DNA of 64,000 nucleotides from Massalongia carnosa. Its lineage: Eukaryota. The stretch is from positions 62,001 to 126,000 of the forward strand of contig OZ287085.1 in NCBI GenBank assembly GCA_965645245.1, read 5' to 3'. The translations under genes were made by a program, and so were the position numbers. This document shows, one piece after another, positions 4,008-54,186 of the stretch. Each line of letters starts with the position of its first letter. The first letter of the stretch is position 1. Below the pieces are notes generated by a model. It made no database searches. It saw only the letters and a program-made list of their open reading frames with translations, and was not told the DNA's origin.

Positions 4008-5132
4008 ATGCCTTCCCATCGCCCTCAAAGAATCACCAAGCCTTCCGCCCGCTCCGGAAACACCCCCGGGCCTGGTCAACGTCCCACTCGTTCCACCCGA
4101 CCCCCTAGTGGAGGGGCCATAGTTCCAGAAACACAGCATCCTCCGAACACTCAAGGCTCGGAAGGAACACTTCCGGGCGATGTGATAGACGTCCACCGAA
4201 CACCGGAACCAACCCCGGACCTGCTGTTGGACCTCAGGGCTCAGCAGGAGGCCACGGCGACAGCCCTCAGGCAGGAGGAGACCCGTCAACTTCAAAAGCA
4301 AATCGCCGACAACTTGGCGCCCATTCAGCGCATAAGGAAAGGAAACACAGTTCCCGAGGGTAGGCAGGAGGCACACACTCCCCACCCGAACCAGCTACTG
4401 CCCGCTGAAACCGAAGGTACGGATCCATGTCTCCTTCCTCTAATTATCGAGTATCCCGCCATAAACAGCATTTATTTCCGACAAATTCTAAACAACAAAT
4501 TCGATCCCATAAATATTTCCAAGCTCTGCACCGATGTAGTCTTAATCAAACCAACTGTCAAACGAGTGAACCTGGCCAAAGGATACGAGTTAATACAAGA
4601 AGAAGACGATGCGTCACCAGGAGACATCAAGGGACTACCTCACCTGATTCGCTGCCTCAGGGTGTATTGGCAGGTCTTGCTTCATTTGGCACCATCCGGA
4701 ATAAAAGACAGTCTTTGTAGGGCCTTTCAAATCTATCAGGACCGCTTGTTGTTACATTACACCATCTACACTTGGGAGTCAGTACGAGTATTTCATATAA
4801 TCTTCCACAGGGGTCGGGTGTACCAGGGAGTGAACGACCCGGCCGAATGGAGGAGAATTGACACCACCGTCGAAAACATGTACCTTACTCGACGGACACC
4901 TAACTTGTCCATGACGGGAGGTACCACCAAGCAGCACCAGGGATCAATTCCGGTAGGCGGCTCCACTGAACCAAAGCCTATGTCCTGCAATCGATACAAC
5001 GCAGGGCGGGAATGCAAGGACTGCAGGTACCCTCACGTCTGCAGTCTCTGTTTCGGCCATCACACGAAAAACAACTGCCCCAAGGCACATATCAGCAACC
5101 CAAATTTCATGTCAACAGGTAGACGAGATTGA
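4008..5132 (+). CDS. gag: Ngaro-1 Gag-like ORF1 with C-terminal Cys/His zinc fingers
   Basis: CNRYN..C..C.YPHVCSLC...H....C motif; homologous to ORF1 of the other two elements (FDPINI.KLC, YTWES). Confidence 0.85.
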   Translation: MPSHRPQRITKPSARSGNTPGPGQRPTRSTRPPSGGAIVPETQHPPNTQGSEGTLPGDVIDVHRTPEPTPDLLLDLRAQQEATATALRQEETRQLQKQIADNLAPIQRIRKGNTVPEGRQEAHTPHPNQLLPAETEGTDPCLLPLIIEYPAINSIYFRQILNNKFDPINISKLCTDVVLIKPTVKRVNLAKGYELIQEEDDASPGDIKGLPHLIRCLRVYWQVLLHLAPSGIKDSLCRAFQIYQDRLLLHYTIYTWESVRVFHIIFHRGRVYQGVNDPAEWRRIDTTVENMYLTRRTPNLSMTGGTTKQHQGSIPVGGSTEPKPMSCNRYNAGRECKDCRYPHVCSLCFGHHTKNNCPKAHISNPNFMSTGRRD

Positions 5133-6723
5133 CTAGCCGGCCCATTTGAGCATATCGCCGAAGGGTTCCCCTATCCGCTGATAGATAAATCAGCAATCGT
5201 ACCCTCAGGGCCTCTAAGAAAAGAAGGCTGGGAACTTCACCTCATGGGTCATCCGGACAAAATTTACAAACAGACCATTCACGATATAATCGTGTACGGG
5301 GCCAAAATTGGTTACACCGGCCCAGAGCAGTTCATTCTAAGCAGCAACCTGGCCTCGGCCAACGAGGCCCCAGAAATTCTAACCATGGACGTAGAGGACC
5401 AAAGGGCCAAAAACCGATTGATCGAGGTGCCCACCCTACCAGCCAAATATATATGCTCCCCCTTAGGCTTAGTCCCCAAAGCAAACGGAGGATGGCGCCG
5501 TATTCATCACCTCTCCCACCCCGAGGGTAATTCGGTGAACGACTTCATTCCCGAGGAATGGGGCGCTCTGGAATATATCACTTTCGACGAAGCCCTCGCC
5601 GGCGTCAGAAGAATGGGCAAGGACTGCGTACTGATCAAACGAGATCTAGCCGATGGCTTTCGCCACGTTCCAGTGGCGCAAAGCGATTGGTGGTTGCTGG
5701 GTTTTTGTTGGAACGGGGTTTACTAGATAGAACGCTTTCTTCCATTCGGCCTCAGGACGTCTCCCTTCTTGTTTGACTTATTCGCGAAAGGTCTGAACTG
5801 GATGATGATTAATAAAACAAATGGCGAAGTTATTCACTACTTGGACAATTTTCTCGGAATCGTTCGCGCTATTCCCGATGCGGCATCCTTCGAAATTTGT
5901 TCAGACCTTCGGCCTAAAAATCAACGAAAAATAAACAAGGCACGGTAGTCGAATTCCTGGGCATAGAGCTGGACACACACCTCATGCAGGCACGACTACC
6001 GGCCGAAAAGCTTCAGAAAGCTAAGGATCTCGTCCAATCAACATTGAATAAATCCACGATAACCAGAAACGAGCTAGACACTCTGCTGGGATTTCTGTGC
6101 TTTGCAGCCAAAGTGGTGGTACCGGGAAGAACTTTTCTCCGACGCCTTTTCAACAGCAAAATCGGGCCCGCGCGCCCATTTATTCATATCAATTCTCACA
6201 TAAAAGCTGATCTTTTATGGTGGCATCATTTCCTTCCATTATGGAACGGCATACACATTATTAGCCCTTCGAGACCCCTGCTCCGTCTCTGGACGGATGC
6301 CAGTGGGGACTTCGGAATCGGGGCATACATACTTCAAGGTGGTCAGACCACACACACATTGCCCGCTGAGCAAGTGGTTTCTGAACGTTATACCACTAGG
6401 CTCAGAGCCAAACATATCAATGAGAAGGAGATGACAGCGATTCTGCACGCCATACGGCGGTGGCTCCCCATGTGCAAGGGAATCTTCTTCTTTATTGCGA
6501 CAGCTTTGCTGTAATGTCCGGGGTCAAAAAGACCTCCATTCGGGGCGGGGCCATGCATCCCTTCCGGAATATCGTCATGATGGCGGCAATATATGACATT
6601 GAGATTGAACCACACTGGCTGTCTACCAAAGAAAATTTCTTAGCAGATTGGTTGTCCCGAGGACTATTTGGAAAAACCGCTGACAATTACCCCAACCTGC
6701 AGGGTATTTCATCGAACAAATAA
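5133..6723 (+). pseudogene. Ngaro-1 RT/RNase H, disrupted
   Basis: SPLGLVPK, RRIHHLS, LPFGLRTSP, YLDN (YLDD mutated), WTDASG, ADWLSR. TAG at 5724-5726 and frameshifts near 5900 and 6480. Confidence 0.9.
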
Positions 6724-7663
6724 CGGCGTCACTCGCCCGCGACCCTCCAGAGACTTGGTATAACGAGGTTCCGCTGGATCGCCGAGCAGCCAGATATTTA
6801 TGGTGGGGCATAGCAATTAGGACTCGAGGGCTTTACGATGCAGCCCGGAAAAGCTACACGACCCACTGTCAATTGGCAACGAATTTCCCTCCCTTTCCAG
6901 CGACAATTCGAAGCCTTTCGGCATGGATAGCCGCCCTGGCTCAGCGAGGGCTCCGCCCCAAAACCATCACAAACTATTTAGCTGGAGTACGATCGAGCCA
7001 ATTGGCCATGGGCCTAGGGGACCTGGAGGTCTTTCACCATCCAGTCCTAGACAGAATAATTGCGGGAGTAAAACGAATGCACGGTGAACCAGAAAGACGA
7101 GAAAGGCTACCAATCACACGCAACATTTTGATAAAATTGCTACGGAAACTAGACACTACTAACGAGGTCCAGGCAACACTTCATGCGGCATACAGCATCG
7201 CATTCGCCGCCTTCTTAAGAGCGGGAGAATTTACCTACAAACAGGGAGAAATACAAGACTCCAGCTTCGATTCATGGCATTTAACTAGGAAATCGGTGGA
7301 TCTATAGGCGGATCGAATAATTCTTTCCCTACCGTCATCCAAGACGGATCCTTTTCGAAGGGGTAGAAAAATTTATATCGCAGCAACAAACGACGAAGCA
7401 TGCTCGATCACCTCCATTCGGAACTTGTTTACCCGCTTCCCGAAACCAGCATCGTCCCCATTGTTCCAGGTTCAGGACAAGGCCTTCACTCGTGAATATT
7501 TAGTGCAGGCCCTACGGAGTGGCCTCCGGGCAGTTGACGTCCGAGCGAATTACTCGGGTCATTCGTTTCGACGGGGTGCAGCAACAACGGCCAAGAACTC
7601 GGGCTTGCTAGAGGAAGATATTCAGACCTTGGGCCGATGGAAATCAGACTCGTATCAATTGTA

Positions 7664-8979
7664 CAAATCGGGTCTAGGAAGTCAGCAAACACTTCGCTTA
7701 ATTTCCCCTCATCTAAATTCCCCCCTTACTTCACCCCCCCCTTTCTACATCAATTTTCATCTGATCAACGAAATGCCTTCTAAACCCAAGACGGCCAGAC
7801 GTGAACACTCATCTGAAACCATTGCTATCGTTGTAGCCCTTCATGAAGTTCACTTATCCTATGCTGAAATAGCCCGTCAAGTTCGGCTGGCCCGTTCCAC
7901 CGTAGTCACCATAGTTCATAGAGCTAAGAGACAAGCCGACGCCTCTTCCGTTCCCAAAAAACGTACTGGTCGGCCAACCAAGCTAAATGTCCGTGCCAGA
8001 CGGGCATTGATTCGCCATGTTGAGAAAAATCCACACGATAATTTGCTGGCCCTGACTACCCCTTCCAAATCGGGTCAAAAGCTCTCTCGCGTCACCGTAC
8101 GAAAATATCTGAAGCTCGGTGGCTATTTCCGTTTCAGGGCTAGAAAAAAGCCGTTTCTATCAGCACGTCACAAAGCAATCAGGCTAAAATGGGGCAAGGA
8201 GCATAAGCATTGGACGGTAGAAGATTGGGGCCGAGTTATATGGACAGATGAAGCTATGTTTGAAACTGGTTTAGACACTCGCTCGTGCTACGTCACGAGA
8301 CGAAAAGGCACGGCCATGGAGTCTAGATATCTGAAGCCTACATTCAAAAGCGGACGAAGCACTGTGGGCATCTGGGCTAGCATACGATTGGGTGAAAAAG
8401 GCCCTATGCTCGTTTTGAATAAGGGGAGACGAATGAATTCAGATATCTACATTGACGAGGTGCTACGGCCTTTAGGGCTCTCGTTTTATGAAGCATGCTT
8501 GACTAGGCGAGGTTTGACGATCTGGATGGATGACGGAGCCAGCTATCATACTTCGAAAAAGGTGATTGATTGGGGAAGACGAAACGGGCTTTTACGCATG
8601 GATTGGCCACCTCAGTCACCCGATTTGAATCCCATTGAGAATCTCTGGCGTATTATCAAAATACGGGTCAGTGCCCGTCGTCACCAAATCCATACAATTG
8701 AGGCCATGGAGCAGGCTATTCGGGAGGAATGGGAGCTGTTGACTGAGGAGGACTTCAGACGGTGCATTGAGAGCATGCCTGAGCGTATTCGCTTTCTTAT
8801 TAAGGCTAAAGGGGGTTCTATTAAATACTGATAACTTAATCTTCTTCAGAATACAGTATTTGACGAAATATGTAGGTTTCAAAGCATCAAGTTGGAAATT
8901 GATTGATTGGGGTGATTTTCATCATTAGGGGTGAGGGGTAAAATGGGGGTGGAACGCGGTCACTTCCTAGACCCGACTG
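7664..8979 (+). mobile_element. Tc1/mariner DNA transposon
   Basis: TA TSD (7662-7663, 8980-8981). TIR core TCGGGTCTAGGAAGT / ACTTCCTAGACCCGA. Confidence 0.93.
7773..8831 (+). CDS. Tc1-family DDE transposase
   Basis: N-terminal HTH, then VIWTDE, MDDGASYH and WPPQSPDLNPIENLW motifs; uninterrupted ORF. Confidence 0.92.
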   Translation: MPSKPKTARREHSSETIAIVVALHEVHLSYAEIARQVRLARSTVVTIVHRAKRQADASSVPKKRTGRPTKLNVRARRALIRHVEKNPHDNLLALTTPSKSGQKLSRVTVRKYLKLGGYFRFRARKKPFLSARHKAIRLKWGKEHKHWTVEDWGRVIWTDEAMFETGLDTRSCYVTRRKGTAMESRYLKPTFKSGRSTVGIWASIRLGEKGPMLVLNKGRRMNSDIYIDEVLRPLGLSFYEACLTRRGLTIWMDDGASYHTSKKVIDWGRRNGLLRMDWPPQSPDLNPIENLWRIIKIRVSARRHQIHTIEAMEQAIREEWELLTEEDFRRCIESMPERIRFLIKAKGGSIKY

Positions 8980-11111: not shown

Positions 11112-14100
11112 TCAATTTTCCACCGTCTCCATCGCATCAGCACGTCTGCTAGGAATCACTACTGCCATTGGCCAGCCAGGTGGAATCATGGACTGTCGGT
11201 CGTCCTCGTCCCCCCCATGGTTTATAGTCGGCCCCTGACTATTATGTTGCTCAGGTTCTTCTATCGGAGGTAAGTTAATATTTTGCCGAGCATGAAATGG
11301 TTTCAGTCGATTTCCTGCAAAGGTTCCAGCTAATAGGGTGCCGTCTAGTTCACATAGTTTGTAAGTTCCCTTATCAACAATTGTTTGTTGAATTTTATAT
11401 GGTCCCAACCACCTGAACGTTAGTTTGCCTGTGTGCTGATTGTCTAATTTAGTGTCGTGCAAAAGAATTAATTGACCCTCGGTGAGTTCAATTGATCTCA
11501 GATTGTTCAGAGTGTCAAAGGTCTCTTTGCCTTCCATTCTTTGTCTTTGCAGGAATAAAGCTGTCTCTTCCATGTCTTCATCCCTTCGCTGTATTTGTCT
11601 CGCACGCATAGCTAGCAATTCGTCTGTTGTATGAACTTCATTCCATGGTAATATTCTCCATGTTGGAATTTCCAGTTCAATTGGTAGAACAGCCTCATTG
11701 CCGCTATTCAGATCGAAAGGTGTGTTGCCGGTGCTAGCACGAACTGTTGTACGGTCGGCCCATAGTACTGCAGGAAGATTATCAACCCATTTGCCCATGC
11801 CTCCATTTGTCATTTTGGATAATGCTTGAACAACTGGCCGATGTCCCCGTTCTATCATGCCATTGGCTTGCGGATGATAGGCAGAAACAACTACTCTTTT
11901 GATACCATATCGATTTGCTAATTCGATAACAGCATCTTTGTTTTCTGGTCCACCATCAACAATCAGTTTTCCGAAGCACCCATGTCTGCATATAACATCT
12001 TCCCACAAGAATCTCGCGACATTCTGAGCGGTAGCTTTTCCTAGTGCTCTACCCTCGACCCATCCGGAAAAGTCATCTCTGGCCATAACAATATAGTGCT
12101 TGCCTCGACAAGCTGGCATGTGGACCACGTCTAAGCCAACCTTCTGCCACATGAAGGTAACCCATGTCGGATGAAGTGCTTCCTCGAGCCTAGTGGGGTC
12201 ACGTTTCTGACATTCCTCGCAGGACCGAACATAGCCTTTTACATCATCGTGCAATTGTTCCCACCAGTACCTGTCTGCTATGCGTCTGTATGTGCCCTCT
12301 CTGCCTCTATGTCCACTTTCGTCATGCAGCTGTTTCAATATTTCCAACTTCCGCTCATCGGAGTCTATCACTCTCCTGGAAGGTACGTTCTTGCTGTTTC
12401 GTCTATAAGGATGGCCATCTTGTACTCGATAGCGCAAGGCCTCGCTCTTAAACGCTCTAAACTCTTTGCGGTTTAGTCTAACCGGCTTTTGTAGTGATGT
12501 TAGAAATGCAGCGATTCTCTCGGACTTATCACTATATCCGGCCTTTAGCACTTTTTCGTCTGGCACCTCGTCTGCGGAGTTAACGGAAATTGGACAGGCC
12601 CTTAGTGAATTCAGTTCGGCATCTATGAAGTCGTCTATGTCTTGCTCCTGCTGTTCGGCCCGAATTTCTTCCTCAGTATGAGGTCGTCTAGACAGTCCAT
12701 CTGCTGCCGTATGTTTTCGGCCAGCAACATGTTTGACCTCGAAGTCAAACAGTCGTATCCATGCTATCCATCGGACTATCAGAGCACCAGGCAAATCGGT
12801 ACAAGCTCCATTCAATTGCGCCACTAGGACGTTGGCGTCTGTCTCCAACACAAAGTGAACTCCATATAGCCAGTGCCTTGTCTTTTTCAATGCCTTTAGA
12901 ACGCCTCGACACTCTCGCTTGGTTGCATCATATCGCTGTTCCACCTCGCTCCATACTCCGCTTTCGTACCGAATGGGGTGACGCTTGCCATCAAAGATTT
13001 GCATCAGTACAGCGCCCCATCCTTTCAAACTCGCATCCACAGCCAATATGATAAGTCCAGCTAGCTCGCTATAGTCAATGGTCTTTAGTGCTGGCGGAGA
13101 TGTCAGAGCTATCTTCAGCAAGTCCATTGCCTCGGTTTGTTCCATGCCCCATACAAAAGCAGCATCTTTCTTCAGCAGACGATATATTGGTTCAGCAACA
13201 ATGGCAAAGTCCAATATCCATATGCGATAGTACACACACACACCTATAAAAGCACGAGCGGAAGAAGCGTCGGTGCATATCGGCCACTCTAGAATTTTGA
13301 TAACCTTAGCGGTGTCCGGATGTCTACCATCGGAGTCGGTCACAAATCCTACTATCTTCAGACCGGCCATGCAAAATTGCGACTTTTCTCCGGAGATAGT
13401 GCATCCAGCCCTTTCTATGTCCGCGAGTACCCCATCTAGCCACATGAGATGTTCAAGCACGTACTTTCTGATGCCCGGTGCCACTTCTTCACCACCATAA
13501 TCAGTCTTCGGCCCCTTCACTCCGATGTCATCAAGGAAAGGTTTAGCACGGTTCGGAATGTGGTCCTGCAGTATCTTTGTCACTACCCGTACGAACTGTG
13601 CAACCGAATTGGTAGCTCCCATTGGTATAGATGTCATTCGCAATAGTCCTATTGGTGTCATGAAGGCGGTCATGTCTCGACTATGAACATCGAGTTCCAT
13701 TTGGTCATATCCTGAAAACAAGTCGATCAAGGAAGCGATGTAGCAGCCAGCAAAGTCCTCTGAGAATTCGTCTACCGAAGGTGGCAGATTTGCGTCTCGG
13801 ATGGTCACTTTGTTCATGTCTAGGGCCGCATTAATTAATCGGTACTTATTTTTCTCTTTCTTCTTCACTATGAACCATGGATTTCGATAGGGACCATGAC
13901 AAGGTTCCAACGTTCCTCGCTGCAGTCGGTCCTTCAGCATCTCTATCACCATCGGTACCAGGGCCCTTGGCAATGGGAATGATGGGGTCTGCCATGCCTC
14001 ATGTGGAATAGTGTTGATTTTACATGGTGGAGACACCTCAGGTTTGACTCTGCCCATCTCGGAAAACTCCCATGACAGCGCTGCTTCTCGGTTGTATAAC

Positions 14101-14699
14101 ATCTGGGTCAACACTTCTTTCTCAGCAGACGTCATACTGTCGCCCACTGTCATTCGCTGCAGCCGTTCCGGTGTCAATCGTGAGCCTTTGAATATTGTCG
14201 AGAACTTTGGAATTAGCCAATCAGGGAACTTTTCTGACTTTGGTAGGCCTCTCTCTTTCTCTAGCGCCTTCGCTTTCCAATCTGCTATTCCACCAGGTAT
14301 GGTGCCATCCGACTGGTCAGAATTCACTGGTCGAACCTTGACTGCCTTCCGTTTGTATGCCGTATCAACTCTCACACTACTCCGTCGCCCGAACACCCTG
14401 TTTTGATTGATCGTGTACATGTCGAATTTCCGAGAAAACCTCAGAGCCGAAAGTCCGACCGAGCCAATTGCACGCGACGGTGTGAAGGCGCGAACATAGT
14501 GGTCCATCGCCGCCTCTTCCGCACTAGTCGCTGTAGGAGTTAGGGCTATTTGATTTAATAGGCCGGGCCTGTTAAATGGAATGGAAGATTTATTCTCCGA
14601 TAGTCCAACCCTAAAACTCGACACTTTCGCTCTCTCCAGGTTTTTATTACTGCTACCAGCCATGGACCTGTTCTGCACATGGTGGCTAGCTAGTTTAAA
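11112..14699 (-). CDS. pol: Gypsy-1 Pol (RT-RNaseH-integrase), -1 frame to ORF1
   Basis: IDLFSGYDQ, FLDD, AVDAS, HDESGH..C..C, GLDVV, VDGGPE, QANGMIER and WLGPY motifs. Confidence 0.95.
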   Translation of the reverse strand, partial: FKLASHHVQNRSMAGSSNKNLERAKVSSFRVGLSENKSSIPFNRPGLLNQIALTPTATSAEEAAMDHYVRAFTPSRAIGSVGLSALRFSRKFDMYTINQNRVFGRRSSVRVDTAYKRKAVKVRPVNSDQSDGTIPGGIADWKAKALEKERGLPKSEKFPDWLIPKFSTIFKGSRLTPERLQRMTVGDSMTSAEKEVLTQMLYNREAALSWEFSEMGRVKPEVSPPCKINTIPHEAWQTPSFPLPRALVPMVIEMLKDRLQRGTLEPCHGPYRNPWFIVKKKEKNKYRLINAALDMNKVTIRDANLPPSVDEFSEDFAGCYIASLIDLFSGYDQMELDVHSRDMTAFMTPIGLLRMTSIPMGATNSVAQFVRVVTKILQDHIPNRAKPFLDDIGVKGPKTDYGGEEVAPGIRKYVLEHLMWLDGVLADIERAGCTISGEKSQFCMAGLKIVGFVTDSDGRHPDTAKVIKILEWPICTDASSARAFIGVCVYYRIWILDFAIVAEPIYRLLKKDAAFVWGMEQTEAMDLLKIALTSPPALKTIDYSELAGLIILAVDASLKGWGAVLMQIFDGKRHPIRYESGVWSEVEQRYDATKRECRGVLKALKKTRHWLYGVHFVLETDANVLVAQLNGACTDLPGALIVRWIAWIRLFDFEVKHVAGRKHTAADGLSRRPHTEEEIRAEQQEQDIDDFIDAELNSLRACPISVNSADEVPDEKVLKAGYSDKSERIAAFLTSLQKPVRLNRKEFRAFKSEALRYRVQDGHPYRRNSKNVPSRRVIDSDERKLEILKQLHDESGHRGREGTYRRIADRYWWEQLHDDVKGYVRSCEECQKRDPTRLEEALHPTWVTFMWQKVGLDVVHMPACRGKHYIVMARDDFSGWVEGRALGKATAQNVARFLWEDVICRHGCFGKLIVDGGPENKDAVIELANRYGIKRVVVSAYHPQANGMIERGHRPVVQALSKMTNGGMGKWVDNLPAVLWADRTTVRASTGNTPFDLNSGNEAVLPIELEIPTWRILPWNEVHTTDELLAMRARQIQRRDEDMEETALFLQRQRMEGKETFDTLNNLRSIELTEGQLILLHDTKLDNQHTGKLTFRWLGPYKIQQTIVDKGTYKLCELDGTLLAGTFAGNRLKPFHARQNINLPPIEEPEQHNSQGPTINHGGDEDDRQSMIPPGWPMAVVIPSRRADAMETVEN

Positions 14700-20700: not shown

Positions 20701-21900
20701 CGTAGATAAAGCAAGCGGAGACATAAACAGAGGCTGGCTGAGAAGTAGGCGTCCATCCGACGAACCTCATCTTCGCCGAGGGACTCGCCTTTGACTGTTG
20801 AGCGTGCGGGGCCGTATGAAGAAATATTTTCCACTACTGCGTGAGCAGTGTCATCTGTAATCCGCGCCATGGCGTTCTATGCCTTATTGTCAGGATCTGT
20901 ATCCGTCAATGAATGAGCTGAGTTGAGTATAAGCGCAACGACCAGCTTTGTTTACGGTACGCCTTGAGATCGCGTCTTCAAGGACGGGAGCCACAGGCAC
21001 AGATGTAAAAGGTGATAGTTGGCCTCTCGTATGACCCCGCTCGTACGATTTATGAAATTTGCGGCGAATCTGAGGCTCATCCCGCCGTTTCCACTAAGCA
21101 TCACCTGACCTCAACCTCACACGTGCCATACTAAGCTACGTCTAGCCATAACTTACACTTCCATCATTATTACTTACTAGTTTCTTGACACGATTAGTCA
21201 TAGTCATATACCTAGTGCTAGTTCATGTGACCTCGTATTGCTTCTATTTCTAAGGTTGGCGGAAACACAGCGATCTGCACCTCGCTGGCGCCGTCACTCT
21301 CGCCGGCGCCTCTACCTAGCGCCCCCTTTCGGGCCTTGGTGCAGATCGCGGTGGATACTCCCTCTACCTCTGCGGCTGAGACCTGGAGTGGGTGGGCGGG
21401 TCAAAAACTACTATGCAGTGCTACCTCCGAATCCGAGATGATGAGGAGATGTAGGACTGCTTTGGCCCTCTATATAGCCTCCATCTCCCCCCTGTCATCC
21501 ATCCATCCCTATCCGATCCCCCGTCGTTATCCGAACCAGCTCCTGGCGGATAACCGTGCAAAACCGAAGAGGTCCGGATTTTGCATCACCTGTTGTCCCC
21601 GTCATGCGTGGAGAACCGCTGGTAGCCGATCCGCTGGTGGCCGAATCCGCTGGTAGCCGAATCCGCTGGTAGCCGAATAGCATCGGTCCCGCACTAGCTC
21701 TCGCCATAGACGAACTAGCTAGTTCATGTGACCTCGTATTGCTTCTATTTCTAAGGTTGGCGGAAACACAGCGATCTGCACCTCGCTGGCGCCGTCACTC
21801 TCGCCGGCGCCTCTACCTAGCGCCCCCTTTCGGGCCTTGGTGCAGATCGCGGTGGATACTCCCAAGCCCAAGATGGAAACGGCTCGCGCGGCGATGCTGT

Positions 21901-22916
21901 TTAGGAGGCTGAGGGAGGGTGTTGAAAACGGCGTGAGGTGGCTAAGATGTGGGATTGATGCGTTTGGATATAAAGCTTGTAGGAGTCTGACTTCCACCGG
22001 CCTAGTAATTGAATGTCGTTCTCGCTAAGACCGACTTCCTTGGCCGACGTCGCTGCACCTCTTCGGAAAGAGTGACCTGAATAATTACCTGTTATGCCTA
22101 AGCTCTTAAGCCCTGATCGCATCGCGGTGGTCAAATATTCGCGTGTGAAAGCCTTTTGTTTATAGAATAAAGGGGAGGTTGCAGGTAGTGGAAACCGGGT
22201 GATCAAATTACGAAGGGATTTTACCGCGCAGGCCTCGTCCCCTGATGCGGCTATCGTTAGCGTAATGCCTCGACGAAAGGGGTCGGTTTTGGACGCCGGC
22301 AAGGAGAGGAACAGCTTATCTGCTTCTAAGTGGACGGATTTCCTAGTTAAATGCCATGATTCGAAGCTTGGGTCTGTTAGGTCTCTGATAGTGTACGTAA
22401 ATTCGCCTGCGCGAAGAAATCCTGCGAATGCCAGACAGTATGCTGCGTGTAGAGTGGCCTGCGCGTTGTCGGTTAAGTCCAATCGTTTCACTAAACGAAG
22501 GAGTATGTTTTTCGTAATGGGCATTCGCTCTTTCTTGTCGGCTTCGCCATTCTTTCGCTTTATGCCGGCAATGATTCTATTTAGTACGGGATGGTGAAAC
22601 GTTTCTAGATCCTCAAAGCCCGTGTCGACTTGGCTGGACCGAACTCCGGCTAGATAGGCCTTGATGGTTTTGGGCTGTATTTTGTGTTCTCCTAGCATCG
22701 CTATCCAAGATGACAAAGTCTGTATGGTTGCCGGAAATGGAGTCGCGTTCATTGATATTCTGCAGTGTGTTACATAGCTTCTTCTCCCTGTGTCATACAG
22801 ACTGCGGGTTTTGACTGCCAAGCCCCACCACAGGTATCTAGCTGCTGGTCGGGATAGAGGTATTTCGCTATACCAGCTTTCGGGAGGGTCGCGTGCTAGG
22901 ATTTGAGTAGAAGTTC
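21901..22916 (-). CDS. Ngaro-2 tyrosine recombinase (probably a spliced exon)
   Basis: FLRAGE, SKTDPFRRG, HSFRRGAAT and GRWKSDSYKLY motifs. Confidence 0.93.
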
Positions 22917-24503
22917 CTGTAAATTGGGCCATTTGTTAGCGATTTTCTCCAATTTGCCCCGTGATAGGAGGTCAGCGAGCTCATTAGACTTTGTTGGGAT
23001 CCAACGTATTTCAATCCGAATATCATGAATAGCGGTCAGCATTGCGATTGCCCGAAGGGGCCGCATAGCGTTTCCACGAATAGATGATTTCCTTATTCCT
23101 GACGTGACAGCAAAGTTGTCACAGTGGAAAATCACATGGCTCCCTGCACAAAGGGGGAGCCATTTACGCAAAGCGTGTAATATCGCTGTCATTTCTTTGA
23201 CATTGATGTGAGTTGGCCTAAGCCGAGACGTGAAACGTTCAGAAAGTGCATGCTCAGCGGGCATGGTAAAACTGGTATGATCCTCCACTAGGATGTAGGC
23301 CCCAATGCCGTACCCTGATGCGTCCGTCCAAAGACGAAATTTCTCGCGAGGACGGTCTAACATGCGAATGCCATTCCATTTAGGTAAAAAAAGATGCCAC
23401 CACTGCAGGTCGGCTTTGATATTCTCGTTAATATGAATATGACGCCCACGAGACATGGCTTTTGCGTTAAAAAGACGTCGGAGGAAAGCTCTCCCTGGCA
23501 CTACCACTTTAGCTGCGAATGACAAAAATCCCACCAAGGAGTCTAATTCCTCCCTTCTAATCGATGATTTTTGCAAGGCCTGTTTGACGAGGTCTTTGGC
23601 TTTCTGCAGTTTGTCTGGTGGTAGCCGTGCTTCCATGAGCATAGTATCCAATTCAATGCCTAAGAAATCGATCACATGACCAGTTTTATTTTTCTTTTCG
23701 TTGACTGCGATTCCAAGGTCTTTGCAAAGATCGAAGAAGTACCGAGTGAAAGCTTCCGCTTCAGGATTAGTGCGGCAAACTGCCAAGAAATCATCTAGAT
23801 AATGAAGCACATCATGTTGATTTTGTAAACACATCCAATTTATCCCCTTTGCAAACAAATCGAATAGAAAAGGAGACGTGCGCAAGCCGAAAGGTAGAAA
23901 GCGCTCCATCCAGTAAACATTATCCCATTGAAATCCCAGCAACCACCAGTCGCTTTTAGCCACGGGTATATGGCGAAAGGCATCGGAGAAATCCCTTTTT
24001 ACTAATATGCACCCTTTTCCTTGTTGTCTTATTTTGGCGACAGCGTCATCGAATGTGGGGTATTCCAAGGCCCCCCATTCCTGAGGGATGAAGTCATTTA
24101 CCGACGATCCTTCAGGATGAGATAAATGATGGATACGGCGCCATGTACCATTTGATTTGGGTACGAGACCTAATGGGGATGATATGAACTTGGAGGGAAG
24201 AATATCTACTCGCGTCAATCGTCCCTTATCCCTCTGCTCCTCGACATCTTTAGTGAGTATATCAGGAGCTTCTTTTGCTGATAGTAGATTGGGGCTGAGG
24301 ATGAATTGTTCTGGGCCGGTATACCCAATCTTGGCCCCATACCGAATAATATCAAAAATAGCCTGCTTGTACACGTTATCGGGATGAGTTTCTAGGTGCT
24401 TCTTCCAGCCGGCGAGGATGAGTGGTCCTTGCTGAAGAGCCTCGAGTTTGTCCATCAGTCTGTACGGAAAACCTTCCGCGATATGGTCATATGGGCCGGC
24501 TAG
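22896..24503 (-). CDS. Ngaro-2 RT/RNase H (in frame with gag after TGA)
   Basis: LPFGLRTSP, YLDD, WTDASG, HINVKEM and ADLLSR motifs; uninterrupted. Confidence 0.94.
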   Translation of the reverse strand, partial: LAGPYDHIAEGFPYRLMDKLEALQQGPLILAGWKKHLETHPDNVYKQAIFDIIRYGAKIGYTGPEQFILSPNLLSAKEAPDILTKDVEEQRDKGRLTRVDILPSKFISSPLGLVPKSNGTWRRIHHLSHPEGSSVNDFIPQEWGALEYPTFDDAVAKIRQQGKGCILVKRDFSDAFRHIPVAKSDWWLLGFQWDNVYWMERFLPFGLRTSPFLFDLFAKGINWMCLQNQHDVLHYLDDFLAVCRTNPEAEAFTRYFFDLCKDLGIAVNEKKNKTGHVIDFLGIELDTMLMEARLPPDKLQKAKDLVKQALQKSSIRREELDSLVGFLSFAAKVVVPGRAFLRRLFNAKAMSRGRHIHINENIKADLQWWHLFLPKWNGIRMLDRPREKFRLWTDASGYGIGAYILVEDHTSFTMPAEHALSERFTSRLRPTHINVKEMTAILHALRKWLPLCAGSHVIFHCDNFAVTSGIRKSSIRGNAMRPLRAIAMLTAIHDIRIEIRWIPTKSNELADLLSRGKLEKIANKWPNLQELLLKS

Positions 24504-25580
24504 TCAATCCTTCCTATTGACCGGTGTCCAATTCGGATTGTTACGAGATTGGCTACTTGGGTTGCTATTGTTGGGGGTGTTGCCCCTGCAACTAAGTGCT
24601 GGGTGCTGTCTCCCGCAGTTGCTGCAGACGTGTTGGTATCTGCAGTCTCGGCAGTCCTTGCCTGTGTTATACCGATGGCAAGGGTAGGGCCTTGGAGTAT
24701 TGCTGTTTGAATTGGTTGTGTATCCCCCAAATCCGGTCCGGGTTTGAAGGTTGTTGAGGGGCCTATCGCGTTTAACCAGGTATGTGTTTTCCAAGTCTGG
24801 GTAGCTTTGCCTCCATTTTACGGGGTCGTCCACTCCTTGATACCACAGCGTTCTATGAAATAGCATATGAACTTGCAGCAACGACTCCCATGTGTAGGTA
24901 TTGTGAAGCAAAATCAGCCGGTCCTCGTATTTCATGAAGGCCCTTGCTAGATCTTTGAACAGACTTGGTTGTGCAAAGTGCAATACCGCTTGCCAGTATA
25001 CCAAAAGACAACGAATTAGGTGGGTGATACCCTTGATGTCGCTCAACGATGCGTCATCCTCGCCAGTAATGACCTCCAGACCTTTGCTGATATTGATAGA
25101 TTTCTTCGTAGACTTGCTCAGAGTAACGTCACTGCACATCTTGGCGATATTGATGGGGTCAAACTTATTTTCCAAAATTTGCTTGAAATACAGCTGGTTT
25201 ATGGCCGGAAAGTCACTTGTCAGAGGGAGGATTCTTGGGTCATCCGTACCTTCGCTCTGAAAGGCCTGATTGGTCTGTTGGGATCCCCCATGCTGAAATC
25301 CCGTAGGGGCCTCCTCCACCTCCAACGCGGCCTGTCTGTCGACAATTTCCTTCCTAAGCTTTCTCATTTCGGCCTGGCGCCCCTCTCGTACCAAAATGTC
25401 GCGTTGTACGCGAAGTTCAAGTAGCTCATCAGGGGTACCGGGGCGTGTGGGCCCTTCTTCCGCTGGCTGGCCGGCCTGCATTGTTGCGGAGGTCGGCTGA
25501 GAGTCAGGCACAAGGGGGGTGAGGGGGCCAGTGGGGCCGCTATCGTCGGCGGTGGACGCAGTGCGGCGGGTAGTAGGCAT
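24504..25580 (-). CDS. gag: Ngaro-2 Gag-like ORF1
   Basis: Likely ATG at 25580 (MPTTRR); FDPINIAKMC; C-terminal zinc fingers. Confidence 0.87.
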   Translation of the reverse strand: MPTTRRTASTADDSGPTGPLTPLVPDSQPTSATMQAGQPAEEGPTRPGTPDELLELRVQRDILVREGRQAEMRKLRKEIVDRQAALEVEEAPTGFQHGGSQQTNQAFQSEGTDDPRILPLTSDFPAINQLYFKQILENKFDPINIAKMCSDVTLSKSTKKSINISKGLEVITGEDDASLSDIKGITHLIRCLLVYWQAVLHFAQPSLFKDLARAFMKYEDRLILLHNTYTWESLLQVHMLFHRTLWYQGVDDPVKWRQSYPDLENTYLVKRDRPLNNLQTRTGFGGYTTNSNSNTPRPYPCHRYNTGKDCRDCRYQHVCSNCGRQHPALSCRGNTPNNSNPSSQSRNNPNWTPVNRKD

Positions 25581-26325
25581 TCTGTTTATGGAAGGGAGTA
25601 GAGCGGAGCTAGGTTTATACGTGTTTATCGAAGATGAAGAAGGGAAGAAGGATGGATTGTTCGTTAGGTTGGAAGATTGTTGGATCGGACTCAAAAACTA
25701 CTATGCAGTGCTACCTCCGAATCCGAGATGATGAGGAGATGTAGGACTGCTTTGGCCCTCTATATAGCCTCCATCTCCCCCCTGTCATCCATCCATCCCT
25801 ATCCGATCCCCCGTCGTTATCCGAACCAGCTCCTGGCGGATAACCGTGCAAAACCGAAGAGGTCCGGATTTTGCATCACCTGTTGTCCCCGTCATGCGTG
25901 GAGAACCGCTGGTAGCCGATCCGCTGGTGGCCGAATCCGCTGGTAGCCGAATCCGCTGGTAGCCGAATAGCATCGGTCCCGCACTAGCTCTCGCCATAGA
26001 CGAACTAGCTATTTCAACAATTGGTTACAATATATTACGAAGTATGACAGCGATCGGAGTTAGTACATTGCTAGAATTGGCTAAGCGGATTGGCGATAAC
26101 TGCCTCGTGATTTCGTTCCTCCGGCGTAACATTTACATGAACTTCATCGTGAAACACGCGAATAAAAGTGGCCCTCATTAGAACACCTGATATGAGCTGC
26201 AAATTTATATTTATATACATTCCGCTTTGCGCTTGTGATCGACTTGACACAAATTTTCCACACCTGTGCTTTTGTCGTCACTGCTACCACCCCGCATAGC
26301 TTGGAACGACAAGCCCAATAGCTCC

Positions 26326-32235: not shown

Positions 32236-33534
32236 TTAAGATTCCACTGTTAAATTCTCCTTCTGCCACTCATTAAGAAACTCAAGCGAAGACTCTGTAT
32301 CAGGATGTTGAGGACCCAATTTGTGTTTTCTTAGCTGAAAACATTCCTTTAGCAGTGAGAGAGCCTTATCATTGCGGCCTTGAGACTTCCACGTGAATGC
32401 AAGGTTGTTCATGCTGGTCAGCGTGTCTGAATGCTCCGTCCCTAGCACCCTCTTTCTCGTCTCCATCACTTGCACCTTCAGCTCTTCGGCCTCCGTCCAT
32501 CGTCCTTGATTCCGATACGTCGACGCAAGGTTGTTCATGCTGGTCAGCGCGTCTGGATGCTCCGCCCCTAGCACCCTCGCACCCGTCTCCATCACTTGCA
32601 CCTCTAGCTCTTTGGCCTCCGTCCATCGTCCTTGATTCCGATACGTCGATGCAAGGTTGCTCATGCTGGTCAGCGTAGAAGGATGCTCCGTCCCTAGCAC
32701 CCTCGCACTCGTCTCCATCACTTGCACCTCTATCTCTTCGGCCTCCATCCATCGTCCTTGATTCCGATACGTCGACGCAAGGTTGCTCATGCTGGTCAGC
32801 GCGTCTGGATGCTCCGCCCCTAGCACCCTCGCACTCGTCTCCATCATTTGCACCTCCAGCTCTTCGGCCTCCGTCCATCGTCCTTGATTCCGATACGTCG
32901 ACGCAAGGTTGCTCATGCTGGTCAGCGTGTCTGGATGCTCCGTCCCTAGCACCCTCTTTCTCGTCTCCATCACTTGCATCTCCAGCTCTTCGGCCTCCGT
33001 CCATCGTCCTTGCTTCGAATACGTCGACGCAAGGTTTCTCATGCTGGTCAGCGTTTCTGGATGCTCCGTCCCTAGCACCCTCTTTCTCGTCTCCATCACT
33101 TGCACCCCCAGCTCTTCGGCCTCCGTCCATCGTCCTTGATTCCAATACGTCAACGCAAGGTTGCTCATGCTGGTCAGCGTGTATGGATGCTCCGTCCCTA
33201 GCACCCTCGCACTCGTCTCCATCACTTGCACCTCCAGCTCTTCGGCCTCCCTCCATCGTCCTTGATTCCGATACGTCGACGCAAGGTTGCTCATGCTGGT
33301 CAGCGTGTCTGGATTCTCCATCCCTAGCACCCTCTTTCTCGTCTCCATCACTTGCACCTCCAACTTTTCGGCCTCCGTCCATCGTCCTTGATTCCGATAC
33401 GTCGACGCAAGGTTGCTCATGCTGGTCAGCAAGTCTGGATGCTCCGTCCCCAGCACCCTCGTACTCGTCTCCATCACTTGCACCCCCAGCTCTTCGGCCT
33501 CTGTCCATCGTCCTTGATTCAAATACGTCGACGC
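32236..33534 (-). pseudogene. Truncated NLR paralogue: TPR array and C-terminus only
   Basis: At least 9 126-bp TPR units and the same C-terminus (..NEWQKENLTVES). Cut by the Copia LTR at 33535; no NB-ARC on the far side. Confidence 0.9.
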
Positions 33535-48059: not shown

Positions 48060-48370
48060 CGATGATGCATGGCCTTCATGCTCACCAGATCTCAACATAA
48101 TCGAGAATATTTGGATGATAATCAAGCAACGAATTGGAAGTTATGAAAATGTCATCATCACTCTGAATGACATGAAGAAAGCCGTTCAGCACGAATGAAA
48201 CGAGGCAAAACAGGAGGAAATTGATAATTTGATAACTACAATGCCTTCTCGTACAAAGCAATGTAAAGACAGAGAATAGAAATGAAGAAAATATCTGTGT
48301 TTTGTTGATGTTCTGTGACTGTTTTTCGAAATTAGGGGGGGGGGACGGACCAATGTCGCCCAACCTTGTA
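48060..48370 (+). pseudogene. Tc1 transposase C-terminal relic
   Basis: Reads WPSCSPDLNIIENIWMIIKQRI from ~48070. Confidence 0.65.
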
Positions 48371-48544
48371 TTATAATAGTCCACCTCGGCGCGAACAACA
48401 ACTTTGACATTGTTGTTCCAGTTACCCAACAATAAGCCCGGTAGAAGGAGTCCGCCGTCAATGACTTCAAGCAATCTTTAAAATCGTTCTATTCTCATAT
48501 GATCAACGGCACCATTGTTTTCTGAACTGCAGTAGATTTTGCAT

Positions 48545-50392: not shown

Positions 50393-51414
50393 TGTTTGGA
50401 GCCGGCAAATGAAGAGGGTTTACAATGTGGCGAGGTGGGAGATTGAGGAGAAGATTTTGGCACGATTCGAATGGTTTTTGGAAAGCTAGGGCTCTTAAAG
50501 ATGATGAGACGAGATATGAGCACAGGCTTGATGAATGAAAGGATGCGGAAGCTGAAGCAGGTATGAGATTGCTTGAGCAGATGGGATCAAGAGTAGGCAC
50601 GAATGTAGAGGTTTCTGATGGTGGGTCTCTTGCATGTGAAAAGGAGTTACTGTTACTTGAAAACTGATTAACATATGACAAGGTGCGAACTCTACCATGT
50701 GAAAGCAGTCGCGATTCCTTCGCCACCAACCCGATAAGGGAGGAGCCACTTGTTGTACCGTACCACCAGTCTTGATTCGCTACCCTGTACAGCAAAAACC
50801 TCAACTCACAATATTACTCCAAGCGTTTATAATTCTTGATTGATTTTTTTTAAAGATTATCTCATTTCATCTCGAGCAATTTCATTTATGAATCAGTCAG
50901 AGTTTCTTCCTGCAGCACTCTAGACAAAAGCTCTTTTCACTCTGCACGCCAATTTGATTTCGCAGATGTTACACTTCTCTTAATCAATCACTAGTTCGGC
51001 TATGCTGAGAGCTAGTGCGTCGTTAATCGAGACAGCTCCCGCTTTGATTTCGGCACCGCATGGATCTCTCGGACGGCATAGATGTCTCAGCACCATAAGG
51101 ATGTCTCAGCACGGCATAGAGATCTTAGCACCGCATCGATCCTTCGGACGACAGTTAGGTTTCGGATTTGTGTATGCCTTGCTATGGGCCGCGTTGATGG
51201 GGCATACTGGGATGGTAGAGTAGGACAAGGAGAATAGGAAGAAGATATATAAAGAGGAGGTCCCAGACGGTATCCCTCATCATCTCACATCTCAAGACAA
51301 TCAAAAAGCATAGCATTTTGATAGCACTGTTTGCAACGTTTTCTTTTCACCCAATTCAAATTTATACAACCACTACACTTAAATTTACTCTATTCAAATC
51401 CCTCTCCTCCAAAA

Positions 51415-52569
51415 ATGGCCACCCGCATCTCCAACAGAATCACCAAGCCTACCTCCCGCACACAAGGCAGCACTCTAGCCCGTACTAGAACTAGAGCTAG
51501 GGCAAATCTAGCCAACTCCAACCCAGACGTCGAAGTACCCGACTCACAAGACAGCACGGCAACCCTTCAAAGCCATCCTCAACCTTCTCCTCTTCCATCT
51601 TCAGCGTTTAATTCCTCCTCACAAGGGCCTGTTATACCGGAAACCCGTTCTCGCACCCCTGATGACATTATTGAACTTAGAGCACAACGCGAAATGTCCC
51701 GCAGGGAAGCCGAGGAAAGAGAAAGAGTAAGTCTTAGGCGGGATATCGAAACCCAACAAGCACGTGCCCGAGACGTGGTCCCTGGGCCAGTAGCCTCAGC
51801 TCAACAGCCTTCCCTATTATTTCCGACATCATTTCCACCGCATCGACCAAACTCATTGTATACAGAAGGTATGGATCCTCGTTTTGTTTCTCTTATGAAC
51901 GAATATCCCACTATCAAGCCCATATGGATAAAGCAAATCTCCGAGAATACGTTTGACCCAATCAACATTACCAAGCTATGTACCGACATCGACGGAGTTC
52001 AAACCAACTCTAGATACGTCAAACTCGGAGAAGGTCTGGAAATCGCCACGAGAGAAGAAGATGGCTCCTTAAAAGATATCAAAGGGATAGTTCATTTGAT
52101 ACGATGTCTCGGGGTATATTGGATGATACTACTACACTTTGCACACCCCGGTCTCCAGATAAACCTGATGAGAGCCTTCATGGCTTATCAGGACCATCTT
52201 CTATCATTATACGCCTTCTACACCTGGGACTCGGTTCGCATCTTTCATTTGAATTTCCACAAATCTCGAGCCTTTCGCGGGATTGACAACCCGGATGGAT
52301 GGAAAGAAATGGACCATTCCTTGGAAAGGCATCTTGTGCGGAAACCGTCCGCTTACTTTGCAAAACCGGACGATAATTCTACGGCTTTCAAAACCTCAGG
52401 CGAAAAGATTATCTGTAAGAAATACAACTATGGCAAAGACTGTCCCGTATATTGTAGATTCCAACATGTGTGTGAGAAATGTGGAAAGCAACATCGGGCG
52501 ATGGACTGTACAAATGGAAAAAATCAACCCTCTAACCCAAATTCGATGCCTCTCCCATCAAGGCAATGA
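51415..52569 (+). CDS. gag: Ngaro-3 Gag-like ORF1
   Basis: ATG 51415 (MATRISNRITKP); FDPINITKLC; C-terminal zinc fingers. Confidence 0.87.
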   Translation: MATRISNRITKPTSRTQGSTLARTRTRARANLANSNPDVEVPDSQDSTATLQSHPQPSPLPSSAFNSSSQGPVIPETRSRTPDDIIELRAQREMSRREAEERERVSLRRDIETQQARARDVVPGPVASAQQPSLLFPTSFPPHRPNSLYTEGMDPRFVSLMNEYPTIKPIWIKQISENTFDPINITKLCTDIDGVQTNSRYVKLGEGLEIATREEDGSLKDIKGIVHLIRCLGVYWMILLHFAHPGLQINLMRAFMAYQDHLLSLYAFYTWDSVRIFHLNFHKSRAFRGIDNPDGWKEMDHSLERHLVRKPSAYFAKPDDNSTAFKTSGEKIICKKYNYGKDCPVYCRFQHVCEKCGKQHRAMDCTNGKNQPSNPNSMPLPSRQ

Positions 52570-54186
52570 CTAACCGCCCCATTCTTATCCATCGCGGAGT
52601 CCTTTCCATACACCTTGACGGACAATCTAACAAAGATCCCACCGGGCCCATTGAAGAAAGAAGGCTGGGAGAAACATTTGGCCAATCACCCGGATCGCAC
52701 TTACACACAAACAATTATCGATATCATCACCTACGGTGCCAAAGTTGGTTATACAGGACCACATCAACTCATTATTAGCGATAATCTTGCCTCTGCAAAT
52801 GAGGCACCGGAAGTTCTTACCAATGACCTCGAAGAACAAATAGCTAGTAATCGGTTGGAGAAAGTCAACAACATTCCTTCTTGCTTTATATGTTCCCCAT
52901 TAGGCCTTGTACCAAAGGCTAACGGTGGTTGGCGGCGAATCCATCATCTATCGTATCCGGAGAGTAGCTCAGTCAACGACCACATACCGGAAGACTGGGG
53001 CTCCCTGGAATATACCAGCTTCGACGAAGCCATTAGGTTGATTGAGCAACGCGGGCCAGGGTGTATTCTTATTAAAAGAGACTTTGCGGACGCTTTTCGC
53101 CACATACCAGTAGCAAAAAGCGATTGGTGGTTACTAGGTTTCAAGTGGCAGGATTCCTTTTGGATGGATAAATACTTACCCTTTGGGCTGAGAACGTCGC
53201 CGTTCCTTTTTGATCTGTTCGCGAAGGGTATCAACTGGATATTGTACAACTGTGGTTGGAAAGACGCTATTCATTACTTGGATGATTTTTTAATAATAGT
53301 CAGCACCGGACCAGATGCTGAAAAGTTTGATCAAGTTTTCCACAACATTTGTAAAGATCTTGGCATGAAAATCAAGCTCGAAAAGAACAGAACTGGAACG
53401 ACTTGCGATTTCCTCGGCATTGAAATCGATACCGCGCTCATGGAAGCACGCTTGCCTTCCGAAAAGTTACTAAAAGCAAAGACCCTAGTATCGGCAGCTT
53501 TGAATAAAAAAGCCATACCCAGGAAGGAACTCGACTCTCTTCTAGGATTCTTATGCTTTGCAGCCAGAGTGGTAAAACCAGGAAGAGCCTTTCTACGCCG
53601 TCTTTTCAATGCTACGGCAAGCGTAACCTCTAAACTAATCCATCTTAACAAGGACATGAGGGCTGATCTTCTATGGTGGCATCATTTCCTACCTAAATGG
53701 AATGGCATACATCTGCTCAACCGTACTAGACATACTATGAGAATATGGACAGATGCGTCCGGCTCATATGGTATGGGCGGCTTTATCCTCAGCGAGGATC
53801 AAAATTTGCATAATATACAAGCAGCCCGGCAGGCTTTTAGCACACGCTTTACTACGCGCCTTAGGGCAAAGCATATCAACGTCAAAGAAATGACAGCAAT
53901 TCTTCAAGCTATGAAAAAGTGGCTACCTATATGCAAGGGTGGTCATTTAATCCTCTATTGTGATAGCTACGCTGTCACGAAAGGAGTGAATAAAACCTCT
54001 ATACGAGGCCAAGCAATGCATGCCCTGCGGGCAATTACAATGCTAGCTGCATTACATGATATCCAGATAGAAGCGCGATGGATATCATCCAAAGAAAATT
54101 ATATTGCTGATCTCTTGTCTAGAGGACTTTTGAAGAAACTGGCTGACAAAATCCCTCAGTTTCAGGCTCTACCCTCAGCAATATAG
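52570..54186 (+). CDS. Ngaro-3 RT/RNase H (in frame with gag after TGA)
   Basis: LPFGLRTSP, YLDD, WTDASG and ADLLSR motifs; uninterrupted. Confidence 0.94.
   Translation, partial: LTAPFLSIAESFPYTLTDNLTKIPPGPLKKEGWEKHLANHPDRTYTQTIIDIITYGAKVGYTGPHQLIISDNLASANEAPEVLTNDLEEQIASNRLEKVNNIPSCFICSPLGLVPKANGGWRRIHHLSYPESSSVNDHIPEDWGSLEYTSFDEAIRLIEQRGPGCILIKRDFADAFRHIPVAKSDWWLLGFKWQDSFWMDKYLPFGLRTSPFLFDLFAKGINWILYNCGWKDAIHYLDDFLIIVSTGPDAEKFDQVFHNICKDLGMKIKLEKNRTGTTCDFLGIEIDTALMEARLPSEKLLKAKTLVSAALNKKAIPRKELDSLLGFLCFAARVVKPGRAFLRRLFNATASVTSKLIHLNKDMRADLLWWHHFLPKWNGIHLLNRTRHTMRIWTDASGSYGMGGFILSEDQNLHNIQAARQAFSTRFTTRLRAKHINVKEMTAILQAMKKWLPICKGGHLILYCDSYAVTKGVNKTSIRGQAMHALRAITMLAALHDIQIEARWISSKENYIADLLSRGLLKKLADKIPQFQALPSAI

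Follow-up and report, generated by a model that had tools for sequence, protein, structure and literature searches.

A conserved candidate intron in fungal Ngaro retrotransposons, predicted to join the N-terminal part of Gag to the tyrosine recombinase

How does a retrotransposon express a protein whose reading frame overlaps the preceding one and has no start codon of its own? The question is raised by the tyrosine recombinase (YR) of three Ngaro elements, E1, E2 and E3, in a 64,000-nucleotide stretch of Massalongia carnosa DNA (assembly GCA_965645245.1, contig OZ287085.1, positions 62,001 to 126,000 of the forward strand; hereafter the window, position 1 being its first letter), where the YR frame overlaps that of the reverse transcriptase and RNase H (RT/RH). 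A sequence-only reading of the window had proposed that YR is made from a spliced subgenomic mRNA as a fusion with the N-terminal part of Gag (GagN). Splice-type signals in agreeing phases, conservation of these signals at synonymous sites among relatives, and open fused frames are observed; the conservation and the matched phases support the proposal, and we infer, with a probability of roughly three in four, that a conserved intron spliced by the host yields a GagN-YR fusion that would be the functional recombinase.

Three Ngaro elements and their predicted splice sites

The window is a transposon-rich, filamentous-fungus-like genome stretch, in which the three elements share one plan: a gag-like open reading frame (ORF) with a Cys/His knuckle, a single in-frame TGA, an RT/RH ORF in the same frame, and a YR ORF in the -1 frame relative to RT/RH, overlapping its last 37 nt. 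The gag ORFs start at 4008 (E1, plus strand), 25580 (E2, minus strand), and 51415 (E3, plus strand). The features are as follows.

Element E3
50991..51290, plus strand: terminal repeat A1, a 100% direct repeat of 55387-55686
51415..52569, plus strand: gag ORF, 384 codons and TGA stop, followed by CTAACC; RT/RH in the same frame
51415..51868, plus strand: coding part of exon 1, GagN, 151 codons and the first base of the split codon
51869..54165, plus strand: proposed intron, 2297 nt; alternative in-phase end at 54159
51869..51874, plus strand: predicted 5' splice site GTATGG, phase 1
52570..54186, plus strand: RT/RNase H ORF (Pfam RVT_1, RT_RNaseH), nearly all within the proposed intron
54142..54147, plus strand: branch-type GCTGAC, its TGA being the stop that opens the YR frame
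54163..54165, plus strand: predicted acceptor CAG, phase 1 in the YR frame; second CAG at 54157-54159
54166..55202, plus strand: exon 2, the YR frame to its stop (Pfam Phage_integrase, alignment A1)
55239..55931, plus strand: 3' repeats, B1 55239-55388, A2 55387-55686, B2 55782-55931

Element E2
25691..25990, minus strand: terminal repeat A1, from the repeat comparison
24504..25580, minus strand: gag ORF, stop context TGA-CTAGCC
22917..25249, minus strand: proposed intron, 2333 nt; donor GTACGG 25249-25244, GCTAAC 22940-22935, CAG 22919-22917
22896..24503, minus strand: RT/RNase H ORF
21901..22916, minus strand: exon 2, the YR frame
21217..21863, minus strand: 3' repeats, B1 21863-21718, A2 21700-21401, B2 21362-21217

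Element E1
4008..5132, plus strand: gag ORF, stop context TGA-CTAGCC
4417..6702, plus strand: proposed intron, 2286 nt; donor GTACGG 4417-4422, GCTGAC 6679-6684, CAG 6700-6702
6703..7307, plus strand: exon 2, the YR frame, ended by an in-frame stop; YR homology as far as about 7664

At the 5' side of the proposed intron, E1 and E2 read GAAG/GTACGG and E3 reads GAAG/GTATGG (the slash marks the predicted exon end), in each case behind the first base of a glycine codon, that is, in phase 1; the introns would start at 4417 (E1), 25249 on the minus strand (E2), and 51869 (E3). At the 3' side, close to the end of RT/RH, a branch-type GCTGAC (E1, E3) or GCTAAC (E2) is followed by 15 nt and then by CAG, with intron ends at 6702 (E1), 22917 on the minus strand (E2), and 54165 (E3); in E3 an additional in-phase CAG lies 6 nt earlier, ending at 54159. 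Motifs and positions on both sides are exactly those that the sequence-only reading had claimed. The 5' site and the CTRAC close to CAG also agree, in the window and in relatives, with the fungal splice consensus: the signals comprise GT...AG ends, GTACGG or GTATGG (GTAYGT in relatives), and CTRAC 9 or 15 nt before CAG. In the window the 12-mer around the donor, GAAGGTAYGGAT, has three matches, all at the donors (mean of 100 shuffles 0.04, none reaching 3), and GCTRAC-N15-CAGG has three, all at the acceptors (shuffle mean 0.22, none reaching 3); a chance origin of the window motifs is excluded.

The exon past the acceptor opens on the second base of a YR-frame codon in E1-E3, and the TGA or TAA within the branch motif is the stop that opens the YR frame. 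Since donor and acceptor are both in phase 1, joining them would connect the gag ATG in frame with YR; the computed GagN lengths are 136 (E1), 110 (E2), and 151 aa (E3), which agrees with the in-frame joining to about 110-150 Gag residues that had been proposed. Phase 1 was found on both sides in every element called, in all families examined. When spliced in silico, intact elements of 11 clusters give open GagN-YR frames of 435-579 aa (E2, 448; E3, 498; L001, 457; L006, 475; L008, 471; L023, 435; L025, 554; L027, 499; L031, 559; L053, 579; L065, 482).

These observations suggest the following course of expression. The full-length RNA would serve as genome and as message for Gag, and Gag-RT/RH would be made from it by readthrough of the single in-frame UGA. 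A fraction of the element RNA would be spliced by the host spliceosome from the phase-1 5' site just ahead of the conserved Gag core to the phase-1 CAG that follows, at a distance of 9 or 15 nt, a CTRAC branch point within the final RT/RH codons; the excised piece, with the Gag core and the whole of RT/RH, would measure 2.3 kb in the window and as much as 3.1 kb in relatives. The resulting subgenomic mRNA, read from the gag AUG, would give GagN (110-151 aa here) fused to the complete recombinase, and the shared GagN might let YR associate and travel with Gag.

The gag stops that would be read through are TGA at 5130-5132, 24504-24506 (minus strand), and 52567-52569, followed by CTAGCC (E1, E2) or CTAACC (E3); a single in-frame gag stop is also found in related clusters (TGA in L001 and L003, TAA in L006, TAG in L008). 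The TGA-CTAG or TGA-CTAA context of E1-E3 fits a known context for stop-codon readthrough, and the region looks like a candidate readthrough site for Gag-RT/RH.

The assignment to Ngaro rests on structure. E2 and E3 are intact and flanked by split direct repeats in the order A1...B1-A2-B2 (two pairs each, 100% identity), which is the Ngaro arrangement. The pol ORF of E3 matches Pfam RVT_1 (E = 3e-14) and RT_RNaseH (E = 4e-7), and the pol ORFs of E1 and E2 are 61-62% identical to it; no Pfam match to a methyltransferase domain, the trait separating Ngaro from DIRS1-like elements, was found in the pol ORF. The E3 recombinase matches Pfam Phage_integrase at E = 4.6e-4, below the Pfam cut-off; its homologues (n = 1484) are in part named integrase, and alignment A1 has conserved columns R198, K216, H288, R291, W314, and Y322 (H-x-x-R pattern). 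By this structure E1-E3 belong to the Ngaro group of the DIRS order. Pairwise identity among the three is 35-39% for Gag and 61-64% for RT/RH and YR. E1 is dead, with RT/RH broken by stops and frameshifts and YR closed by a stop at 7305; directly after its truncated recombinase lies a Tc1/mariner-type transposase ORF (7308-8828, plus strand; HTH_Tnp_Tc3_2, DDE_3).

Conservation of the signals among relatives

Relatives were collected from metagenome contigs with a YR protein profile (A1). The search confirmed 483 stretches, from which the 79 best loci were retained, many of them holding whole elements. The 67 elements with enough YR DNA, E1-E3 included, form 36 clusters at <80% nucleotide identity, with E1, E2, and E3 in separate clusters. 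Loci in which the anchor motif was misplaced or deleted (L029, L032, L036, L052, L067, L069, L074) were left out before the acceptor alignment, which holds 60 distinct sequences, 56 of them gap-free over a 22-codon block at the RT/RH end; counts per cluster take in 35 of the 36 clusters. Background codon usage was taken from 44 pol ORFs. In L029, a deletion around 4700-4740 fuses RT/RH and YR in one frame (..ARWIPTNGQPP..), with loss of the branch motif and CAG.

The block at the RT/RH end reads N-x-L-A-D-x-L-S-R ... (A/T)-(D/N)-x-x-P-Q-L, the last part being (G/A)CT(G/A)AC-N9-CAG in the DNA. T is the last base of the branch-motif Ala/Thr codon in 55/56 sequences (34/35 clusters), and C is that of the Asp/Asn codon in 53/56 (32/35 clusters); in the acceptor column all 43 Gln codons are CAG, the third base being G in 45/56 sequences and A in 2/56, neither of these two a Gln codon. 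Counted by cluster, the third base is G in 30/35 and the Gln codon is CAG in 30/30; the five clusters without G have another residue at this place, three being of the PNLQ type with CAG 6 nt further on and two making up the L038/L062 family. Usage in pol is 21% for T-ending Ala/Thr, 62% for C-ending Asp/Asn, and 51% for CAG, against which the binomial tails are 3e-22 (T), 9e-5 (C), and 2e-9 (CAG).

As a control, the Ala and Asp codons of the L-A-D motif, 12 codons upstream in the same clusters, end in A15/T11/G5/C4 and in T24/C11, and the three codons separating the branch motif from CAG show all four bases at the third position. The residues themselves vary as CTRAC permits (Ala or Thr; Asp or Asn, first base G19/A15). 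Where P-N-L-Q replaces P-Q-L, in the window family and in the L008 cluster, CAG has moved by six bases, N9 has become N15, and the phase is kept. In L003, exceptionally, GCTGAC-N15-CAG sits one motif earlier. Among 22 cluster representatives (92,730 nt), CTRAC-N9-CAG occurs 18 times, 17 of them at the acceptor site. An acceptor first called automatically in L001 and L014, a GAG right behind the branch motif, was rejected, the homologous site being the aligned CAG 9 nt further on.

The donor was followed in a large distant group, with about 40% YR identity to E3 and one Gag relative named as a Tuber brumale protein, in a plain MAFFT alignment of 23 distinct sequences. GTA is present in 23/23 and T at position +6 in 23/23; the hexamer is GTATGT or GTACGT in 19/23, GTACCT in 2, and GTACAT in 2. 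The split codon is GGT, AGT, or CGT (G, S, or R); it is followed by ATG or ACG (M or T), save in four decayed-looking variants, and then by a codon that always has T as its first base (Y, F, S, C, or L). Conservation is far lower in the columns flanking the hexamer, and GGT makes up just 15.6% of the Gly codons in pol. In the 22 representatives GTA(C/T)GT occurs 22 times, 13 of them at the donor site. GTGAGA, 39 nt downstream in this group, was considered as a second donor and rejected, its GT not being conserved. The decayed copy L016 has GGC at the donor site.

Other clusters have a phase-1 GTA in this position or close to it, ahead of the Gag-core (D/N)-P; the candidate donor hexamers are as follows.

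Cluster L008: GTAATG
Cluster L001: GTACTA
Cluster L003: GTAATA
Cluster L006: GTACGT, further upstream
Cluster L038: GTAGGT

These donors were chosen by eye among the phase-1 GT(A/G) sites that are common in gag (0-8 per segment of at most 360 nt); they are consistent with the proposed intron and are not independent tests of it. The N-terminal part of Gag is weakly conserved across families, and tblastn matches of the E3 Gag usually begin at residue 152-164, at the donor. GagN is a real domain. In the distant group it has about 205 aa, is basic at its N-terminus, and contains an EPSTPEYSHSP motif together with two helical motifs that are conserved; in the window it has an Arg-rich start and a TPD-L-ELRAQR helix.

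The simplest opposing explanation is that there is no intron, and that the motifs follow from protein constraint on Gag (E-G-x-D-P) and on the RT/RH tail (A-D..P-Q), or from chance. Both motifs do lie within coding sequence, the frequency of phase-1 GT(A/G) sites in gag favors a fortuitous donor, and a spliced product was not seen. Against this, the synonymous positions are fixed only where the splice consensus demands it, the same residues 12 codons upstream being free, the donor hexamer of the distant group stays while the amino acids change, and the shuffles lead to an expectation of 0.04 and 0.22 matches where 3 and 3 are found; such an origin of the motifs is hardly credible. The sequence-only reading had named free variation at synonymous sites in homologues as a test; the motifs are held at the nucleotide level and the control codons do vary, and this conservation beyond the need of the overlapping coding sequence supports a real intron.

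In the distant, Tuber-like group the gag-pol spacer has no fixed frame relation, and no ATG precedes the pol core. A branch-like motif (mostly CTYAC) and an AG lie 89-95 nt upstream of the pol PNT.IHY motif (CTYAC-N9-NAG) in L024, L025, L029, L040, L041, L047, L050, L053, L054, and L072; this candidate second acceptor is in phase 1 of the pol frame, which is open from there. The case for it is weak because half of the sites are AAG. It is tentatively conceivable, though doubtful, that GagN is shared by alternative splicing of the retroviral kind, with one phase-1 donor and several phase-1 acceptors giving GagN-YR in all families examined and GagN-RT/RH in the Tuber-like group, so that every protein would carry the same handle for co-assembly with Gag, a device that would be older than the split of the families. 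The same group has two copies of GTTAGC, one overlapping the gag stop (CGT TAG C) and the other about 16 nt ahead of the pol PNT motif (GTT AGC AAA CAA), for example at 2990 and 3160 in L029. A small intron between these copies at the gag-pol spacer was rejected; the phases do not match and the frame is not kept.

Routes to the recombinase and the search for spliced products

The distance from the acceptor to the conserved PP..W of YR is 17, 20, 29, 32, 41, 47, or 71 nt, depending on the cluster, and always 2 mod 3; some of the differences fall behind the pol stop (E1 versus E2 and E3; L008 versus L010). As the leader length changes in steps of 3, also behind the pol stop, the leader is evidently read in the YR frame. 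A Met is present in this leader in only about 7/24 clusters with a readable leader, and the first internal Met comes only after the conserved YR N-terminus (RDPP..WY..ARYLWWGL), so that ribosomes must enter from upstream. No ATG is found between the upstream stop of the YR frame and RDPP..WY in E1 and E3, as had been stated for these two. The ORF-caller protein of E3 accordingly holds 247/351 residues and starts about 104 residues in.

One way of entering from upstream would be a -1 ribosomal frameshift, or other recoding, in the RT/RH-YR overlap, giving Gag-RT/RH-YR, with the splice-like motifs conserved for another reason. The geometry is suitable, as in 33/33 distinct overlaps the YR frame lies at -1 to that of RT/RH, and the 2 mod 3 constraint on the YR leader fits a frameshift equally well; slippery heptamers are found in the 19-nt overlap of the L008 cluster (CCCAAAT and AAATTTA) and in the L025 cluster (CCCAAAA). 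An X_XXY_YYZ heptamer in the pol frame is present, however, in only 7/33 distinct overlaps, from two clusters, and in 0/3 of E1-E3, and -1 frameshifting was rejected as a general route on this count. Nor would it account for the nucleotide-level conservation of a canonical donor hexamer in gag, 2.3-3 kb upstream, or for the fixation of CTRAC and CAG at synonymous sites; this route is quite improbable. In L008, L010, L013, and L015, the interval from the branch motif to CAG contains CCCAAAT and/or AAATTTA in register with pol, and a -1 frameshift could coexist with splicing there.

Another explanation keeps the splice and drops the fusion: splicing would only bring YR near the 5' end or lower the amount of genomic RNA, YR would start at its own AUG or at a non-AUG codon, and the in-frame GagN would be incidental. 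The clusters with a leader Met are in its favor, as are 10/35 YR homologues with a Met just ahead of the conserved core and the beginning MAQ of E2 and P0003. Against it, splicing would remove the ATG of E2 together with the proposed intron, and in E1, E3, and the majority of clusters the conserved N-terminal domain has no Met ahead of it. The phase of the donor agrees with that of the acceptor in each family, and the leader changes in threes, also behind the pol stop. The first AUG of the spliced RNA, moreover, would be that of gag, which is in frame. We regard this explanation as unlikely, if somewhat less so than frameshifting. YR may start on its own in some lineages.

Translation of GagN-YR from the spliced RNA, as proposed, has further evidence in a protein pair of another organism, P0018/P0121 (513 aa), in which a Gag N-terminal homologue is joined to a full YR; its first 80 residues match the Gag N-terminal helical motif at E = 2e-8 (E2) and 6e-7 (E3). 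With the N-terminal 136 aa of P0018 as query, nothing but P0018 was matched.

Several points weigh against the spliced fusion. The P0018/P0121 fusion, known from its protein sequence, may stem from a processed copy, a deletion, or a gene model. E2 has a YR-frame ATG just upstream of the acceptor, inside the proposed intron, and the 10/35 aligned YR homologues with an early Met begin 1-3 residues before DPP, with starts taken from ORF callers. In L038 and L062, which are one family, CTRAC is missing from the aligned position. At 2.3-3.1 kb the intron would be very long by fungal standards. Over 51000-56000, neither a joint nor a gap at the splice sites is seen in the contigs of four runs (X1, X4, X5, X6), although contigs drop rare forms and cannot show absence, and a processed, intron-less copy was not found among the 79 loci. 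A GagN profile (A2) gave 29 matches among longer proteins; the four inspected (the Tuber brumale protein and the three longest of those lacking a Pfam RT match) are all Gag with upstream extensions. Finally, YR is in frame with RT/RH in other Ngaro clades (P0196, P0254, P0264).

Of the N-terminally extended proteins among the 150 best YR representatives, eight were inspected, three being in-frame RNase H-YR and five not tied to Gag; short or unrelated extensions stand ahead of YR in P0197, P0266, P0307, P0274, and P0173. The proposed splice is not universal; it is one of several solutions in the DIRS order.

In the contigs of run X1, word depth over E3 (51167-55842) is near 21,000, versus about 23 in the 5' flank; in run X4, E3 and the 5' flank are about equal, and these contig depths are not readable as copy number or expression. 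Around the three elements lie NLR-like genes with TPR_10 repeats and NACHT/NPHP3_N domains (2-2665, 32236-33579, 59103-60215), a Ty3/gypsy pol (11112-14747), and a copia-type element (33803-38308).

Comparison with known retroelements and meaning

The proposed arrangement has partial counterparts among retroviruses. The env mRNA of avian sarcoma/leukosis virus uses a donor inside gag, and its product uses the gag AUG and starts with Gag residues; in that virus a few Gag codons are fused to an envelope protein, whereas here a conserved Gag domain of 110-290 aa would be fused to an integration enzyme. In foamy viruses Pol, with the integrase, has a spliced subgenomic RNA of its own as its message and is not made by Gag-Pol readthrough or frameshifting; this Pol has its own start and no Gag part, in contrast to the fusion with GagN predicted here. 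In Ty1/copia elements of plants and in BARE, alternative splicing of element RNA sets the protein output (PMC5580714, PMC3735527); according to the parts of these papers covered, the spliced RNA encodes Gag alone, whereas splicing here would allow expression of the last ORF by removing the Gag core and RT/RH. The arrangement would be a novel form of a known retroelement habit, the use of splicing to express a downstream gene.

E1-E3 share with the Ngaro group a gag-like ORF1, RT/RNase H, a Phage_integrase-type YR, the lack of a methyltransferase, and, in E2 and E3, split direct repeats; they differ in the proposed intron and Gag-YR fusion, neither of which is given in the portions of the published descriptions covered. 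A survey of fungal DIRS and Ngaro elements describes, in the passages covered, the YR ORF as in frame or frameshifted and possibly overlapping others (PMC3783388), and its full text has 0 occurrences of 'intron' or 'splic'. Splicing of Ngaro is not mentioned in the covered parts of the Cafeteria Ngaro paper (PMC8547959) or the Glomhopper paper (PMC13465315), and those of the DIRS-1 paper (PMC7192593) contain only an artificial marker intron. No description of a spliced YR message or of a Gag-YR fusion was found in the literature searched, the founding Ngaro paper (Goodwin and Poulter 2004) lying outside that search.

The conserved intron would be a concrete answer to how DIRS and Ngaro elements express an overlapping, start-less YR frame, a point left open in the descriptions covered. 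It would add tyrosine-recombinase retrotransposons to the retroelements that set their protein ratios by alternative splicing, and a new protein would be expected from it, in which the recombinase carries the N-terminal domain of Gag. Annotation of these elements as three plain ORFs truncates the recombinase, the called E3 protein being short by about 104 N-terminal residues.

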